Shown: one piece after another, positions 471-50,684 of the stretch | Numbering within the stretch: the stretch's first letter is position 1 | Layout: the number at the start of each line of letters is the position of its first letter | Source: Gemmatimonadota bacterium | GTDB taxonomy: Bacteria > Gemmatimonadota > Gemmatimonadetes > Gemmatimonadales > GWC2-71-9 | Length of the DNA: 54,818 nucleotides | Assembly: GCA_029262155.1 (NCBI GenBank) | Contig: JAJCZW010000004.1 | Location: forward strand, 1 to 54,818 | Reading direction: 5' to 3' | Position numbers and translations under genes: made by a program | The notes under the pieces: model-generated | Told to the model about the DNA's origin: nothing | The model's database searches: none | What the model saw: the letters and a program-made list of their open reading frames with translations, nothing else

Positions 471-929
471 ATGGTCATCACAATCAGGTATTTGCGAAAT
501 GGTCAATCAGACTGGGAGCAGTGCGAGCTGCATCCGGATGACTACTTTGACCTTGAACCAGGAGAGCATCCGAGCCAGGAAAGCGTGGAACGACATAGCC
601 ATGCAGTCGACTACCTGGGCCTCAACCCCGAGGAGGTAGCGGTTACGGAGCTCACGGTAACCACCTCAGATCACTCCACAAGAGTAATCACTGAGCGTCT
701 ATGGAACCAAGGCTTGAACAGTCTGACGGAGATAACCGATACTTTCAGCGATTCCCCTGGCTGGTGGCTGATTTATACGTTCGACAACCCTCTTACCCCG
801 GGAGCCTATGAGGTTCAACGGTTCGGCCGCAACAAGGATGGTATTCTCATCCTTCTTTCGCACATGATTTATGAACCACGAGCAGATGGAGAGGAGCACA
901 AACACCGAATACACGCTGGCCATATGTGA
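471..929 (+). CDS. hypothetical protein (152 aa), tightly coupled to the preceding gene; position typical of an immunity/partner protein
   Basis: ATG 3 nt after the upstream stop. Visibly lower GC than its surroundings. Acidic, soluble-looking sequence with no motif I recognise. Confidence 0.5.
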   Translation: MVITIRYLRNGQSDWEQCELHPDDYFDLEPGEHPSQESVERHSHAVDYLGLNPEEVAVTELTVTTSDHSTRVITERLWNQGLNSLTEITDTFSDSPGWWLIYTFDNPLTPGAYEVQRFGRNKDGILILLSHMIYEPRADGEEHKHRIHAGHM

Positions 930-1069
930 CATCCCGGGGAACCGGGGGGACGCAGCCTTCTTCGAGGCCGACAGCTTCGTCACACCCTCACCCCCTCGGC
1001 CCAGGAGGATCGGAACCCGTATTATGGCCGCGTGATCTACACCCCGGGGCTCATCATCAGGAGCACTTC

Positions 1070-2182
1070 ATGAGTTTGCCAATTACGTTTCTGGCGGCCC
1101 TTTCCCTCGTGGCTGGCCAGGTCGACTGGAAGCTGTCGGATCAACCCATTCAGGTGACGGGTACGCCGAACGGAGCCGACGCCGGCATACTCGGTCGAGT
1201 CGTTGGGGTGACTCGTTTTAAGAATGGCTCCCTCGTCGTCGCCGACCGGCAGTCGCTAAGTCTGCATCGTTTCGACACCTCGGGGCGATCCGTCGGCATG
1301 ATTGGAAGAGCGGGTGCAGGACCGGGAGAATTCCGGACCATTCAGTCCATGAGGCGGTGTGCCGGCGACTCCCTCTTCGTCTATGATCCCTCCCTACTTC
1401 GGATTTCAGTGTTCTCCCCTGAGGGAAACTTCTCCCGCACCATTCCCCTCGCTGACGCGGCCGGTGGCGGGCCACCACCATATGAATTCTACTGCAACGA
1501 GAACGGCGTATTGGCACTTCTCCACCGGTCGCTCGCACCACCCGCGGGGGTAGGCCCCAGGCGGCCGAACGTCGCGGTGACGATCATCCAGCCGAACGAT
1601 CGCCTCGTGAGTGTGGGGACATTTCCGGCCTCCGAGAGATATTTTAATGGATCCGAAGATTTTGCCCGCCCCTTGGGAAAACAAACCTCGCTTGCCGTTG
1701 GCTCCACCACTCTCTATATCGGAACCGGTGACCACGTTGACGCTCGGGACTCTGTCCGAATCGTCGGCTACTCCTTTCAGGGAAATGAGAGGATCGTGAT
1801 CCGTGATCGCTTCGCGACTGTGCCACTCAGCGCGAGGCGACTATCGGCCTATATCGAGCAACAGGCATCTCGTCGGGCTGGCCGAGAAGAGGAGACGAGG
1901 GGCTTCTATCGTTCGCTTGAGTACCCGCCGACATTCCCAGCATACCGGAACGTTCTCGTTGACCCGACGGAGCACATCTGGGTCGAAGAATCACCCGTAC
2001 CAGGTGATGCCATCAGCCGCTGGAGAGTGTATTCGCCAAAGGGCCTGCTCCATGCCGCGGTGCGGATGCCAAGGAGTTTCCAGCTGATGGAGATCGGGAG
2101 CGACTATGCCGTTGGGGTCTGGCGGGATGAGATGGACATAGAAACAGTTCGGGTATACCGGTTGATCAAGACCGATTCTTGA
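1070..2182 (+). CDS. secreted 6-bladed beta-propeller family protein (paralog 1 of 3 in the window)
   Basis: ORF 926..2182 trimmed to ATG 1070, where a signal peptide starts (MSLPITFLAALSLVAGQ). Carries the blade motif GAGPGEF, shared with the ORFs at 47120..48235 (GSGPGEF) and 48619..49791 (GHGGNEF). Confidence 0.75.
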   Translation: MSLPITFLAALSLVAGQVDWKLSDQPIQVTGTPNGADAGILGRVVGVTRFKNGSLVVADRQSLSLHRFDTSGRSVGMIGRAGAGPGEFRTIQSMRRCAGDSLFVYDPSLLRISVFSPEGNFSRTIPLADAAGGGPPPYEFYCNENGVLALLHRSLAPPAGVGPRRPNVAVTIIQPNDRLVSVGTFPASERYFNGSEDFARPLGKQTSLAVGSTTLYIGTGDHVDARDSVRIVGYSFQGNERIVIRDRFATVPLSARRLSAYIEQQASRRAGREEETRGFYRSLEYPPTFPAYRNVLVDPTEHIWVEESPVPGDAISRWRVYSPKGLLHAAVRMPRSFQLMEIGSDYAVGVWRDEMDIETVRVYRLIKTDS

Positions 2183-45365: not shown

Positions 45366-45723
45366 GGCCGGGCCACGACGTGGTCCACCCCCCGCACGAT
45401 CGCTATCAGAGCGAGATAGAGTATGTCGGGCGTTGCCAGGGGAGTTCTCCCCTGAACGGTTCACTGTCGTTTCCTTCGATGATCGCTTCTTTCACCTATC
45501 ACCGACCGATATCGCCTCCTCCCACTGCCGAGCTGTTGGGGGAGTTCGGATGAATCCCTCAGCCTGGTGAAGAATCTCTCCGGCTGTTTGGCGAACGAAA
45601 AGTGGGGGGAAGGGTGCTTTCGCCATCCCCTGGAGCAGGTACTTTGCATTGCAAAGCACCTCCTTCGAGCGGGGTGTGCCGACAGCCTCGGCGGTGGAAC
45701 TCGAGGACCATGGGAGGCTGAAG

Positions 45724-46164
45724 ATGAAAGACTGGCTGAGACGGATCCGGGGGGCCATTGGGATGGGCCTGACCTGGGCGGTGGCCTGGTTCGGCGCCGG
45801 GCTCGTCCTTTTGCTCATCGTCGGTCCCGACGCTGCCGACGTCCCGTTTCCACTCGGCTTCGGCATGTTTGGTTTTCTGGCCGGGGTCACCTTCTCCGGA
45901 GTCCTCGGTGCCATTGAGAGCCGCCGGAGGTTCGATCAGATGTCGCTGCCGCGGTTCGCGGCGTGGGGGGCTCTGGGAGGCCTGCTGCTGTCCGGGCTCT
46001 TTGTCGGGGTCGCGGCGCTCGCAGGGGAGACCGTGGAGATCATGGTGCTGGGACCGGTGTTCGCTCTGGCGGGTGCGGGCTCCGCCGCCGGGTCGCTGGC
46101 GTTGGCCCGACAGACAGAGGAGGGAGCTCTGCCGGGCAACGGTGGGAGGACCACCCGGGAGTAG
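45724..46164 (+). CDS. hypothetical 4-TM membrane protein
   Basis: Trimmed to MKDWLRRIRGAIGMGLTWAVAWFGAG. Gly/Ala-rich TM helices. Confidence 0.55.
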   Translation: MKDWLRRIRGAIGMGLTWAVAWFGAGLVLLLIVGPDAADVPFPLGFGMFGFLAGVTFSGVLGAIESRRRFDQMSLPRFAAWGALGGLLLSGLFVGVAALAGETVEIMVLGPVFALAGAGSAAGSLALARQTEEGALPGNGGRTTRE

Positions 46165-46579
46165 CCGGAGGTGAAGCGGAGTGATTGCTCGGAGGCAGGG
46201 ATGGATCGGGGCGGAGTAGATCCAACCGTGAGCCCTCCGGGGTCGGAGTGGCTCCGTCATTGCGCCCTTCCCGATCATCTCGGAAAGACCAACGGGGCGC
46301 GCTTGGGTGCCGGAGTCGCAATGTTTCTGAGCGTCAACTAGATCCTGATTCAGAACCGGTTCTCTCCCGGATACGACGGCACCTTACTGATAGCCCAGTT
46401 TCTTCTTCTGGCCGGTGCGTCGGGTCGGATGCTCGGCGTTGACCGTTATCTTCCCCGCCGCTGGCGATCGGTTCCGATTGGGTAGCGTGTCACTACTAGA
46501 AGCCTGCGGCATTCCGTCCGCCGTGCGGCCACGTGCGGAGGAGACTTAGGTTACGACGGTCCCCCTACAAGGGGTAACC

Positions 46580-47119: not shown

Positions 47120-48235
47120 TCACCGTCGGAGGACGGCGTGGATCAGCGTTTCGACATCATCCTCGTCGCGGCTCACGCCAAGGATCCTGGTGCCATTGAC
47201 TTCGAGCAGAGTGAATCGCTCCGGCAGCGTCACGGTCTCCGGTGGCGAACGGTCGGGCCGCAGGACAACCCACCGCGGGGGGTCCCCCGGTTCCACGATC
47301 ACTTCGACCCAGACATCCCCCTCTGCGGTGGAGAGTAGGCGGCCAAAGAGCGGCATATGTTCCGGGGCTTCGGCCAGTGAGGACGGATCCAGATGGAGTC
47401 GGGCCCTTCTCTCCTCGACCACGGCATTCTCCGCTGGCGTCGCTTTCCGCGGTTCAAGCGGCACGGGTATGCTGTCCAGGACGACTCCGGCAGCCGAGAA
47501 CAGGCGGATCTCCGGGGTGTCGGAGAACCCGACCCAGACGCCGTGCCCCCTTCGGTCGACTGTGGCCTGGAGACGAGGGCCGTGGGGGTGCACGCTCGTC
47601 GTTGGTCCCCGGGAGTTTCTCCCCACAGTCATGTCGAATAGCGGGAACCTCCCGATCACTTCTGTCATGCTGTCACCTGGGACATAGGCTACTACCAAGG
47701 TCGAGTCGCGATACGTGGAAGTCGTCCTTTGTCCGTCGGGTACAGGGACCGTCTTCCCGACAATGACGAGAGCCCCCGATTCGAACTCCCCGACTACATC
47801 GGCACTCCACGAAGCGGCCGCGGTTTCCACCTGGGCCGAGCGAACCATTTGTCCATCCTCACCGACCCAGGTCACCCGGCGCAGGCTCCGGTCATAGGCC
47901 CATGCCGTTCCGTTCAGTGCAATACCGAACGCGGTGAGTTCGCGGAATTCCCCTGGTCCCGACCCAATGGTTCCAGACCAAGTCAGCGATGCCCCGGTCG
48001 AGGAGAAGAAATGCACCCGCGCCGCCTTGTGATCAGCCACCCCGATAACCCCGCTCGGAAAGGTGACGGCGCCAAGGATCTGCTCGAACCCCTGTCCGTC
48101 GGCGCCGCGTTCATGAGCCCACAGGATCTCGATTGTGGACTCCCTCCCCGGATCTGTTGGCGCGGGCAACTCCTGCCTGCACCCGGCGATCATGTATCCG
48201 AGTAGTGTGGCTACGGCGACCTTGATCATCCACAT
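47120..48235 (-). CDS. 6-bladed beta-propeller family lipoprotein (paralog 2)
   Basis: MWMIKVAVATLLGYMIAGC lipobox. GSGPGEF motif. Repeated blade-like segments. Confidence 0.8.
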   Translation of the reverse strand: MWMIKVAVATLLGYMIAGCRQELPAPTDPGRESTIEILWAHERGADGQGFEQILGAVTFPSGVIGVADHKAARVHFFSSTGASLTWSGTIGSGPGEFRELTAFGIALNGTAWAYDRSLRRVTWVGEDGQMVRSAQVETAAASWSADVVGEFESGALVIVGKTVPVPDGQRTTSTYRDSTLVVAYVPGDSMTEVIGRFPLFDMTVGRNSRGPTTSVHPHGPRLQATVDRRGHGVWVGFSDTPEIRLFSAAGVVLDSIPVPLEPRKATPAENAVVEERRARLHLDPSSLAEAPEHMPLFGRLLSTAEGDVWVEVIVEPGDPPRWVVLRPDRSPPETVTLPERFTLLEVNGTRILGVSRDEDDVETLIHAVLRR

Positions 48236-48304
48236 CCCTCCAACTGCTGACGTAACGCGTGGGTCGTGTGCTTCATGAGGTGTAGCAACTTCCCTACTTG
48301 TCCC

Positions 48305-48532
48305 TCAGGGGCACGACGTGAAGAAGGTGCAACCACAGCCCTCAAGCGAATCCTTCGGGCAGCACCACCGCTCAAAGGCTCCAGCGCACTCCGATCCAGA
48401 ACAGTTGCAGGTGTTGTGGTTTGCCAAGGCCGTCGAGGTGGGCAGCAGCATGAATCCAGCCGAGAGAACAAGGCCAGTAACAATCATGGCCCGGGTCTTC
48501 CTAGCAATTCCCTGTAAGAGATGATTCACCAT
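48305..48532 (-). CDS. small secreted cysteine-rich peptide precursor (75 aa; predicted 38-aa mature part with 8 Cys)
   Basis: ATG 48532 with GGAGGA 7 nt upstream. Signal peptide MVNHLLQGIARKTRAMIVTGLVLSAGFMLLPTSTALA. Mature part NHNTCNCSGSECAGAFERWCCPKDSLEGCGCTFFTSCP. Sits in the 383-nt gap between the two propeller genes on the same strand. Confidence 0.55.
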   Translation of the reverse strand: MVNHLLQGIARKTRAMIVTGLVLSAGFMLLPTSTALANHNTCNCSGSECAGAFERWCCPKDSLEGCGCTFFTSCP

Positions 48533-48618
48533 GATGACGTTCCTCCATGAAACAGGTTTATCACGAATCACACAACCCACGTTTCGATTACGAGACACAC
48601 TTGGCCGCAGCAGATTCT

Positions 48619-49791
48619 TTAGATCTCGGAGACACCCTCCAGCGACAGCCACACTAGCACTCGCCTGGTCCTACTACCACCTGCGGTAGCAAGGAGCAAT
48701 CGTCCCTTATCACTTGTGACAATCCTATCGGTTGCTGGCAGATAGAAACGACCGATTAGCGTTCCCGACAGTGCCATGGCAACCCACCGAACCGAATCGG
48801 ATTCCGCCTCGATGGACTCACGAATGAGTACGACATCGGTGTCAGTGCAATGGAGGTCGGTGATTGCTGGGTGGTTCGCTGGGGCAGAAGCCGCCGCCTT
48901 CTCTAGCTCCCTTTGGGCCGCCTCTTGTAGTGGTGGAAGTGCCTTGCCCCGGCCCATCTGTTGCGTCCGCCCACTTCTTCGCTCCATCTCCCGGCTGACA
49001 TCCCTGCTCGTAACCGCCCGTCCTGCCCAAGGCCCCCGTATGACGCGCTTCGTCCCAGGTGCATTAGCTGGAAAGACGATGAGGGTGAATTGCGCCTCCG
49101 GCGCCAGTATGACCGTACCATCACGGCATGCCGTCCACGTTGGTCGCGCCTGGAAGAACCTGGGAATCGGGCGATAGCGGGCGTTTGTCGTTGCTGCGGG
49201 AACCGTCCACGAAGCAAGAGTGTCTGGCAAGGTGTCTGAACCACGCAGACGAAGTGCCGCAGTCAAGACAGGGCTACCGAGCTGGGAGCTCGGTGCGTGC
49301 GTGAAAGCAAGCAGGCCGGGTTCGATTGACATTATCCCGACAATGTCAGGTGGCACCTCGAGTGCCCACATGCCAGTGGCTCTTCCGGTGCTGTCAAATA
49401 CCAGCACCTTGGACCCTACGAGATCAACAAGGAACACCGCTCCATCAGGGAAGGCCCCCAAAGTCAGAGCCGATTCAAACTCGTTGCCTCCATGCCCTAC
49501 TACCCCGAAGCTCATGGCGCCGGAGCCGTTCGGCTTGCTACGACGCAATCCGTCGTATACCGAGGCAAGGACAAGCTTCCCATCCGTGGCCATTGCGGCC
49601 ACCGTGTTCGGACTTACCTCGCATCCGGACGACTCGGGTGGACGAAGACACAAAGTGTCACGGCGAACGGCAAGTAGCCGTACGTTCAAGTACTCCGCTC
49701 GGTTGATTCTCGTGGGCTGGATGTCGCTGTTAGTATCAGTTGATCTTCCGGAACAACTGAGGACGGCACACAGAACCAGCACGCCGATCAT
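48619..49791 (-). CDS. 6-bladed beta-propeller family lipoprotein (paralog 3)
   Basis: MIGVLVLCAVLSCSG lipobox (ORF start 49830 also possible). GHGGNEF motif. Confidence 0.8.
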   Translation of the reverse strand: MIGVLVLCAVLSCSGRSTDTNSDIQPTRINRAEYLNVRLLAVRRDTLCLRPPESSGCEVSPNTVAAMATDGKLVLASVYDGLRRSKPNGSGAMSFGVVGHGGNEFESALTLGAFPDGAVFLVDLVGSKVLVFDSTGRATGMWALEVPPDIVGIMSIEPGLLAFTHAPSSQLGSPVLTAALRLRGSDTLPDTLASWTVPAATTNARYRPIPRFFQARPTWTACRDGTVILAPEAQFTLIVFPANAPGTKRVIRGPWAGRAVTSRDVSREMERRSGRTQQMGRGKALPPLQEAAQRELEKAAASAPANHPAITDLHCTDTDVVLIRESIEAESDSVRWVAMALSGTLIGRFYLPATDRIVTSDKGRLLLATAGGSRTRRVLVWLSLEGVSEI

Positions 49792-49974
49792 ACGGTTTGC
49801 AGTCCGAGAGGAGCAGCAGGGACTGATCATCGACTGTTCAACAGTCCAGTTGGCGAGCTGCCGGCAGTCGCGAGATCAATGGCAGTGTAGACCTTCAGGG
49901 GGTCTACCAAGCCATACATGCTCATTAGCTTTGCAACATTTCGAACACCAAGGGCAGATACCACCACACGGCCA

Positions 49975-50272
49975 TCGGGCCAGACACGCACAACCGTGGG
50001 GACGCCAGCGACAACGGGTTCAAGCGTACCACAAGACCGTCACCGCCAACACTGGGCTGGACGTCTACTTCGCGGACCCACGCAGTCCCTGGCAGCGGGG
50101 CACGAACGAGAACACCAATCGGCTTCTGCGTCAGTATTTCCCGAAGGGCACGAGCATGGGATCGCTGACCCAAGATGATCTCGATGCGATTGCGGCCAAG
50201 CTGAACAGCCGACCGCGTAAGACGCTGGATTTCGATACCCCGGCCGAACGATTGGAAAGACTGTTGCATTGA
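49975..50272 (+). mobile_element. IS30-family transposase C-terminal remnant (frameshifted, N-terminus missing)
   Basis: ...AYHKTVTANTGLDVYFADPRSPWQRGTNENTNRLLRQYFPKGTSM...LNSRPRKTLDFDTPAE is the conserved IS30 DDE C-terminus. Only this tail of ORF 49220..50272 is meaningful. Confidence 0.7.
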
Positions 50273-50283
50273 CCGGTTGAGTC

Positions 50284-50550
50284 TACCGCCGCTTTTCCCA
50301 GGAACTCATGCTCTTGCCGCAGCACCGCCAGCTCCCGACGGAGGCGCCGCACCTCCTCCTCGGCGGTCTCCACCCGGACCGGGGCCGCCACCTCACCCCG
50401 CGCCACCAGCTGGTTCTTCCAGCCCCGCAGCTGCTCGGGGCGGAGCGACAACTCGCGGGCCACCTGGCTCACCGGCCGACCCAGCTCCGTGACCTGCCGG
50501 ACCGCTTCCTGCTTGAACTCGGGCGTGAAGGCCCGACGGATCTTTCCCAT
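50284..50550 (-). mobile_element. IS3-family OrfA (HTH) remnant; orfB absent
   Basis: MGKIRRAFTPEFKQEAVRQVTELGRPVSQVARELSLRPEQLRGWKNQL...LRRELAVLRQEHEFLGKAAV. Homology stops ~11 nt from the IS30 remnant. Confidence 0.75.
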
Positions 50551-50684
50551 GACACACCTCCGTGCCTCTAATATCGAGGCAATGGCGGTGTCCATCAAAT
50601 CGAGGCCACTTCACTCTGGAATGCCGCTAGTGATCGCAAAACCGTATGTTGGGACATGTCCCTGCCTGATAGGTCTCCCGGACA

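Follow-up and report, generated by a model that had tools for sequence, protein, structure and literature searches.

The stretch of DNA analysed here, referred to as the window, is a contig of 54,818 nucleotides (JAJCZW010000004.1) from a Gemmatimonadota bacterium of the order Gemmatimonadales (assembly GCA_029262155.1), the genome of which amounts to 3.2 Mb with a GC content of 61% and is 90% complete. The MutS protein encoded by this genome is 65-70% identical to those of metagenome-assembled genomes of the Gemmatimonadales. Its minus strand carries a small open reading frame (ORF) for a cysteine-rich polypeptide of 75 amino acids, called the mini-protein below, which lies between the genes of two β-propeller lipoproteins of the NHL type and downstream of the remnant of a thioredoxin gene. 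The product consists of a signal part, MVNHLLQGIARKTRAMIVTGLVLSAGFMLLPTSTALA, followed by a tail of 38 residues with eight cysteines, NHNTCNCSGSECAGAFERWCCPKDSLEGCGCTFFTSCP. The following features belong to the gene itself:

48305..48532, minus strand: coding sequence of the Cys-rich mini-protein, 75 aa, with ATG at 48532..48530 and stop codon at 48305..48307; identified from the ORF and its translation, an orthologue, a family of 11 clusters and the ratio of nonsynonymous to synonymous substitution rates (dN/dS)
48541..48546, minus strand (reads 48546..48541): Shine-Dalgarno sequence GGAGGA, with an 8-nt spacer to the ATG
48422..48532, minus strand: predicted Sec signal peptide, residues 1-37, with n-region RKTR, hydrophobic core AMIVTGLVLSAGFMLL and c-region PTSTALA
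48308..48421, minus strand: predicted mature peptide, 38 aa, with C42, C44, C49, C57, C58, C66, C68 and C74, the motifs ERWCC and CGCTFFTSC and a net charge of -2

An earlier note on this DNA had pointed out the ORF, the GGAGGA sequence at a suitable distance ahead of the ATG, the A-L-A motif and the density of eight cysteines in 38 residues, all of which are borne out by the sequence. A competing plus-strand ORF (48318..48524, 68 aa, GTG start) exists as well. A codon model, for which 556 long ORFs from the same genome served as the training set, gave negative log-likelihoods in all frames (-10.9 for the mini-protein frame and -7.7 for the antisense ORF). The GC content at third codon positions (GC3) of the mini-protein frame is 0.67, which fits a coding sequence, whereas that at first positions (GC1, 0.46) does not, because of the Cys, Thr and Asn codons. 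The comparison of codon usage and GC3 in both frames that the note had proposed thus agrees with coding as far as GC3 is concerned, but is not decisive, since Cys-rich peptides score poorly in any frame. Moreover, at least eight Cys per 38-aa window are found in 20 of 30,716 open frames of at least 60 aa in the genome. Cys density and codon statistics alone would therefore be insufficient as proof of coding, and it is the comparison between homologues that decides.

A word-indexed search of 5.8 billion protein clusters led to P0002, a protein of 74 amino acids that is 69% identical to the mini-protein, retains all eight cysteines and is encoded on four metagenome contigs in a gene order (404 aa, 74 aa, 369 aa) matching that of the window. 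At the DNA level, the window and this 69%-identical orthologue differ by an in-frame indel of 3 nt, and their ribosome-binding regions are nearly identical. Calculated according to Nei and Gojobori, dN/dS amounts to 0.32 over the entire ORF and to 0.15 over its mature part. None of the other frames has a lower ratio, the antisense frames giving about 0.5 and 3.1. A GGAG- or AGGAG-type Shine-Dalgarno site lies 5-9 nt ahead of the start at all 10 homologous loci examined, and in nearly all of these GC3 is the highest of the three codon positions of the sense frame. The antisense ORF is not conserved, its frame being interrupted in the homologous loci L009 and L011. It is almost certain, in our view, that the minus-strand ORF 48305..48532 is genuine and encodes an exported Cys-rich protein, as the note had maintained in preference to the plus-strand ORF; the conserved-Cys family, the Shine-Dalgarno sites, the dN/dS values and the broken antisense frames all agree with it. 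The note had also expected that automated callers would miss so small an ORF; this does not hold, since the window protein itself sits in the predicted-protein collection (P0001). A chance open frame in GC-rich DNA, or a real gene at plus-strand 48318..48524 instead, would be in keeping with the slightly better log-likelihood of the latter and with the same Cys density in 20 other open frames of the genome, but deserves hardly any credence and is already refuted by the comparative data, in view of eleven diverged homologues that retain their cysteines, signal peptide and Shine-Dalgarno site, the antisense frames broken at two loci and the higher antisense dN/dS. A scan for sigma-70 promoters and terminators gave nothing exceeding shuffled background.

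When 1.84 billion representatives were scanned exhaustively with HMMER and a profile search was then added, the mini-protein family was found to comprise only 11 clusters among about 15 billion predicted proteins, with lengths of 72-82 amino acids. They share the pattern CxC..C..(E/Q)(R/K)xCC..CxC(T/S)(F/Y)(F/W)..C. In the alignment of the 11 members (A5), C42, C44, C49, C57, C68 and C74 are invariant, and 10 of the 11 contain C58 as well as C66; both are absent from the remaining member, P0007 (CW.. and ..GGC), which was observed on seven contigs. The tryptophan of ERWCC (W56) is variable and replaced by L, Y or F in some members, the His just before the first Cys is conserved but not invariant, and two members carry extra residues past the last Cys (CGES and CGET). 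The Cys-rich part is preceded by P-x-x-x-A-x-A, with P31 present in 8 of 11 members, A35 in all and A37 in 10. All members possess a hydrophobic core with a Kyte-Doolittle value of 2.0-3.0 and an n-region with a net charge of +1 to +5. Since the layout of n-region, core and A-x-A is conserved in all 11 members, the signal-peptide assignment made earlier is strengthened, and we infer a Sec signal peptide of the classical kind, with a type I site at which the protein would be cleaved. The mature parts are 34-48 amino acids long and neutral to anionic (net charge 0 to -4). The AlphaFold2 (AF2) model of the mini-protein, based on the 11-sequence alignment, has a predicted local distance difference test score (pLDDT) of 72 overall, with about 81-83 for most of the mature part and 67 for the last residues, and contains three short strands at 42-45, 55-59 and 67-69.

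The description of the mini-protein as unannotatable held up, in that no curated family in Pfam or NCBIfam matches it. Pfam gave no match for any of the 11 members at E values up to 10 save one chance match, NCBIfam gave none for the family, and the sequence search of the PDB yielded a chance match alone (E 0.2). A check against knottin, bacteriocin and metallothionein profiles had been suggested, and no Pfam or NCBIfam match to these or to defensins was found either; PADLOC likewise gave no match for the mini-protein.

The distribution of the family is extremely narrow. Among some 400 sampled genomes of the phylum, one clear member was found outside the source genome, in a genome of the same order (G255), and four marginal partial matches were judged not to be real. 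No member was present in 166 genomes of the same family nor in two of the same genus, and the source genome contains no paralogue. Scanning GTDB representative genomes with the CGCTFFTS pattern gave no result, and a scan of metagenome DNA re-found only L010, a locus already in the set. The mini-protein family thus appears to be a very rare and unnamed one of Gemmatimonadales-type bacteria.

The genes surrounding the mini-protein gene are, on the same strand and next to the damaged DNA described further on:

48619..49830, minus strand: β-propeller lipoprotein A of the NHL type, 403 aa, with lipobox VLSC; 76% identical to the product of L005:677-1891
47120..48235, minus strand: six-bladed β-propeller lipoprotein B of the NHL type, 371 aa, with lipobox IAGC; identified by NHL profile, AF2 and Foldseek
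49827..50027, minus strand: thioredoxin remnant, last 66 codons plus stop; identified by tblastn with residues 147-212 of the product of L005:42-680 (82% identity) and by a hidden Markov model match
50030..50598, no strand assigned: nested insertion sequence (IS) fragments, found in place of the 5' part of the thioredoxin gene and comprising an integrase-core piece and an IS3-type OrfA

The mini-protein gene is separated from the propeller genes by 86 nt (A) and 69 nt (B), and the ATG of propeller A overlaps the stop codon of the thioredoxin remnant (ATGA). The complete cassette has the order membrane-anchored ResA-like thioredoxin (DCPAC), propeller A, mini-protein, propeller B. Both propellers start with lipoprotein signal peptides and are paralogous to each other and to the peptide-flanking genes of other loci; in L010 and L011, the gene upstream of that for the peptide encodes a homologue of propeller A. 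A B-type propeller follows the peptide gene at every sufficiently flanked locus (the window, L005, L009, L010, L011, L014-L017 and L020), immediately downstream except for L010, where the distance is 334 nt. The B-type profile matches NHL domains in the PDB (Thin, TRIM71 and TRIM2) with E values of 1e-30 to 1e-22 (best 1.5e-30) over 2-5 stretches, with weaker matches to Brat (5e-7), the amidating lyase PAL (4e-6) and BF0058 (PDB 4raa, 0.001). The AF2 model of propeller B has a pLDDT of 80 and a predicted template modelling score (pTM) of 0.79, and Foldseek recognises it as a six-bladed NHL propeller (E 1e-11) with matches to Thin, Brat, TRIM71 and BF0058 (4raa, rank 21). In an alignment of seven B propellers, the invariant columns are the lipobox Cys and Gly, Pro or Trp positions only, and no His, Asp or Glu column is invariant, which would fit a binding scaffold better than an enzyme. 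One face of the propeller bears the conserved motifs DH, RDST and GFSD.

The thioredoxin encoded by the cassette is a protein of about 212 amino acids that has a membrane anchor at its N-terminus and contains DCPAC or DCAAC as well as a cis-Pro loop of the (V/I)P form (five orthologues aligned). Its profile matches ResA structures (E 2e-6), and Pfam matches to Redoxin and AhpC-TSA were below the cut-off. The gene is present in L005, L010, L017 and L020, in divergent form (CFTC) in L018 and as a remnant in the window, which has lost both the transmembrane segment and the active site (DCPAC). In L011, the thioredoxin is fused to propeller A in a single protein of 577 amino acids. G255 and G219 were the only genomes in which specific orthologues of the thioredoxin were found, the gene of G219 standing by itself.

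Propellers of this type are not restricted to the cassette. The same genome contains 17 propeller paralogues, and only two more of these have a candidate Cys-rich signal-peptide ORF upstream. Propeller B scores 14 bits with DUF5128, below the cut-off of 22.9, and propeller A gives no match at all; paralogues in the same genome and in L011 reach or approach this cut-off. A paralogue of 418 amino acids encoded elsewhere in the window (926..2182, plus strand; DUF5128 E 7e-6, above the Pfam cut-off) has no adjoining Cys-rich mini-ORF. Separately, the source genome (G000) encodes at L121:2840-3085 (C119:6339-6584) a second, unrelated candidate of 81 amino acids with a Shine-Dalgarno site, a signal-like N-terminus and eight Cys (…SCLASGSDCKCINGGTKHGICSALGTGDSCRRQCECRDDC…), directly upstream of a truncated propeller of which only the last blades are left (L121:3130-3600). 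On contig C209 of G000, another ORF (71 aa) has four Cys (…FCREECFLYYTMCEC…), a signal-like N-terminus and a Shine-Dalgarno site of its own; it lies in the vicinity of a further propeller paralogue, about 760 nt upstream of the open frame of the propeller-like ORF (minus strand).

Some observations concern the spacing between the genes. In the gap 48236..48304 between mini-protein and propeller B, TCATGAAGCACACGACCCACGCGTTACGTCAGCAG is nearly identical in L005 though the neighbouring bases differ, and a ACCCACGC-like motif recurs ahead of the propeller B start in L009 and L011. The TCATGAAGCACACGACCCACGCGTTACGTCAGCAG gap of the window can be read as an upstream ORF of 16 codons that overlaps the start of B; in L005 this frame stops after 9 codons. 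The conserved stretch may be a regulatory element. At L017:1876-1956, a strong GC-rich hairpin (GGATCGAGGGCCCGCG…CGCGGGCCCTCGAT) follows directly after the mini-protein gene, a feature for which the window offers no counterpart. The hairpin may represent an attenuating terminator, which would raise expression of the peptide over that of the propeller.

Homology between the window and L005 extends exactly from 50027 to 47115. Beyond the truncated thioredoxin gene, the integrase-core fragment (approximately 50030..50272, plus strand) is recognised weakly (rve_3, E 0.008), and the IS3-type OrfA (50131..50598, minus strand; HTH_Tnp_1, Pfam E 1e-16) has had its own 3' part replaced. The flanks of the window are poorly conserved in relatives, so no empty site can be shown from them, and the local GC content dips to 58% as compared to 61% for the genome. 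In L005, L123 and L126 the locus adjoins genes for an SNF-family transporter and an aminotransferase, with an M28 peptidase gene on the other side in L126. In contig C106 of the source genome (5508-5734) the M28 peptidase, SNF transporter and aminotransferase genes are only about 225 bp apart, as compared with L126:971-6912 and L005:3929-4269. This site is apparently empty of the cassette, the cassette itself being on C4; the source genome is a metagenome-assembled genome of 259 contigs, in which C4 and C106 could stem from different strains. L123 and L126, from the NCBI metagenome-assembled genomes GCA_041741375.1 and GCA_039794085.1, encode propeller B orthologues that are 75-78% identical, and carry no member of the mini-protein family of the window. 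Ahead of the B orthologue they possess an unrelated signal-peptide ORF of 62 amino acids with four Cys (L126:3380-3568 and L123:155-343; …DCFYSCGNNQGHAKCTC…), accompanied by a different propeller lipoprotein, the called start of which seems to lie too far downstream. This arrangement looks like a cassette replacement. We read the cassette as exchangeable accessory DNA that has probably moved, and been damaged by IS activity, in the source genome. Close to it, a segment of about 380 bp (45724..46109) inside the ORF 45559..46278 (minus strand) recurs on C212 of the source genome and, several times over, in the two genomes of the same genus (72-77% identity), and thus represents either a repeated element or a gene with multiple copies.

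Building on the coding gene, its family and conserved cysteines, its neighbourhood and the thioredoxin and NHL folds of its partners, all of which are directly supported, we propose a chain of events that, taken as a whole, we hold to be narrowly probable: the mini-protein would be exported, acquire disulfides with the help of the thioredoxin and work together with the propellers. The product of 75 amino acids would cross the inner membrane via Sec and be cleaved after A-L-A, releasing an anionic peptide of 38 residues into the periplasm of a two-membrane (diderm) Gemmatimonadales bacterium. There, the eight cysteines would be joined by four disulfides, including C58-C66, with a small three-stranded sheet at the centre, as suggested by the paired loss of these two residues in P0007, by the conserved Cys being even in number, by the location in the periplasm and by the CxxC protein encoded alongside. 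The membrane-anchored ResA/TlpA-like thioredoxin (DCPAC) would form or shuffle the disulfides of the peptide, a role in folding or isomerisation for which the gene linkage argues. The folded mini-protein would then act together with the flanking six-bladed NHL propeller lipoproteins, most likely as a bound ligand or small subunit, since the adjacency of the genes is invariable.

Several observations weigh against this proposal. The AF2 prediction is only moderately confident, with pLDDT 72 in one of five models and 47-52 in the others, and Foldseek gave no fold match to the PDB for the mini-protein model (best E 4.7). The paired loss of C58 and C66 is known from one family member alone. Within the contigs of loci L014-L016 no thioredoxin gene was present, and because the thioredoxin gene of the source genome is truncated, its cassette may be decaying. 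Propeller B would not strictly need the peptide, since 75-78% identical orthologues exist without it. Proteins of the ResA/TlpA type are usually reductants, and the thioredoxin could keep thiols reduced instead of forming disulfides.

The last point is at the centre of an alternative in which the mini-protein is a periplasmic Cu- or Zn-binding peptide, a small metallothionein or metal chaperone, with its cysteines kept reduced by the TlpA/ResA-like thioredoxin. ResA and TlpA function as reductants, the copper sites in ScoI and CoxB being reduced by the latter; the nearest solved relatives of the cassette thioredoxin are ResA-type proteins. The CxC, CC and CxC motifs and the conserved His before the first Cys resemble metal sites, and in one locus, L011, a DtxR/FeoA-type metal regulator adjoins the cassette. 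However, the joint absence of two cysteines in P0007 resembles the loss of a disulfide pair and not of cluster ligands, the His is not invariant, the aromatic-rich sequence and predicted β-sheet are unlike metallothioneins, and there is no metal transporter or regulator that recurs from locus to locus, so that a metal-binding function seems unlikely to us. The earlier note had named four disulfides or a metal cluster as options for the eight cysteines. Of these, four disulfides appear the more likely because C58 and C66 were lost together and because a gene for a CxxC thioredoxin-fold protein travels with the peptide; a metal cluster seems less likely.

A similarly small chance is given to the explanation that the mini-protein is a secreted, bacteriocin-like peptide used in competition or as an antimicrobial, in which case the propellers would confer immunity or serve as receptors and the thioredoxin would be a dedicated folding helper. 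The very patchy distribution, with a single clear match among the roughly 400 phylum genomes and none among the 166 of the same family, is in line with such a role, as is the location of the cassette in a variable region beside IS fragments. In sister genomes the B propeller is accompanied by another Cys-rich peptide and another propeller, and the usual site of the source genome is apparently empty; both observations fit fast-changing competition loci. LuxR/GerE, ECF (extracytoplasmic function) sigma factor or response-regulator genes lie nearby in L011, L014, L016 and L017. On the other hand, mature peptides with a net charge of 0 to -4 are unlike most membrane-active peptides, the cassette contains no ATP-binding cassette (ABC) or other exporter crossing the outer membrane at any locus and no small membrane immunity gene, and no bacteriocin family in Pfam or NCBIfam matches.

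A still weaker case, which we consider very improbable, can be made for a modified-peptide precursor resembling the peptides that are made on ribosomes and modified after translation (RiPPs), or for a cofactor-bearing small subunit, with the NHL propellers as modifying enzymes in analogy to the NHL-like propeller lyase PAL. The propeller profile does match the lyase domain of peptidylglycine alpha-amidating monooxygenase (E 4e-6), but the match spans generic NHL blades only, and the B propellers are devoid of an invariant His, Asp or Glu column. Aromatic residues beside the cysteines are conserved and two members extend past the last Cys (CGES, CGET); a Trp-derived quinone is nevertheless unlikely because of the replacement of the ERWCC tryptophan by L, Y or F in some members, and no locus carries a gene for a radical SAM, YcaO, LanM-type or haem enzyme.

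Among characterized systems, methylamine dehydrogenase appears to be the closest working analogy to the cassette, in which an exported disulfide peptide would be folded by a thioredoxin and would work with propellers. There, MauD, a CXXC thioredoxin-fold protein, is required for the six disulfides of the small subunit (bioRxiv 10.64898/2026.03.05.709764). As in the cassette, a small exported Cys-rich protein (MauA), a propeller (MauB) and a periplasmic CxxC thioredoxin-fold protein (MauD) are encoded together. The similarity does not extend to sequence, since none of the cassette proteins matches the models for MauA, MauB or MauD, the cassette propellers are six-bladed NHL lipoproteins unlike the seven-bladed MauB, and MauE- or MauG-like genes are absent from all cassette loci. 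The mature mini-protein has 38 amino acids as compared to about 130 for MauA and lacks the invariant Trp pair for the tryptophan tryptophylquinone cofactor, W56 being variable. Membership of the mini-protein in the MauA family was rejected, as it fails on every feature tested (profile, Trp pair and neighbours).

A combination of a thioredoxin-like domain with a six-bladed NHL propeller is also found in NHLRC2, in which the two are fused (PMC6107167). The cassette resembles this protein in having both domains, fused in L011 and encoded by adjacent genes elsewhere. Unlike NHLRC2, the thioredoxin and propeller of the cassette are usually separate, membrane- or lipid-anchored and extracytoplasmic, and NHLRC2 has no counterpart of the Cys-rich mini-protein gene, so the resemblance is at the level of fold and family only.

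Small exported proteins of the NVEALA family (PF14055) adjoin the six-bladed DUF5128 propeller lipoproteins of Bacteroidales. Both the AF2 model of propeller B and its profile match a propeller lipoprotein of the DUF5128 group (PF17170; BF0058, PDB 4raa). Unlike in DUF5128/NVEALA pairs, B scores below the DUF5128 cut-off, A gives no match and none of the 11 peptides matches NVEALA. Assignment of the mini-protein to PF14055 was thus rejected; the profile gave no match in the whole genome either, and control genomes likewise gave none. In the literature searched, no paper on DUF5128 or NVEALA was found.

Bacteriocins with a dedicated thiol-disulfide oxidoreductase are known from the pediocin (PedC) and sublancin (BdbB) operons, which belong to Gram-positive bacteria and make use of double-glycine leaders and ABC exporters. 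The cassette shares with them a small, disulfide-containing exported peptide that is encoded with its own thioredoxin-fold helper, the disulfides of the mini-protein being predicted ones. It differs from them by its Sec signal peptide, the anionic character of the peptides, the presence of propeller lipoproteins and the lack of an exporter.

The operon context, which the author of the earlier note did not see, is the most informative part of the locus. The mini-protein represents a new and very rare protein family in a conserved type of cassette; it is unnamed in Pfam, NCBIfam and the PDB, and small exported Cys-rich proteins of bacteria are poorly catalogued in general. No paper describing a cassette of peptide, NHL propeller lipoprotein and thioredoxin was found in the literature searched. 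As a tentative and rather doubtful extension of the proposed chain, the locus may belong to an undescribed, horizontally shuffled extracytoplasmic system in which interchangeable disulfide-knotted peptides serve as ligands or small subunits of NHL propellers and are folded by a private thioredoxin, either as a polymorphic recognition or competition pair or as an enzyme with a light and a heavy chain like methylamine dehydrogenase. The swapping of cassettes between close relatives suggests that these loci evolve fast. Should the mini-protein be a competition peptide, it would provide a new disulfide-knotted scaffold. If it is a ligand or subunit of the propellers, it would open a first way of approaching the DUF5128/NHL lipoproteins, which are greatly expanded in Gemmatimonadota and Bacteroidota.

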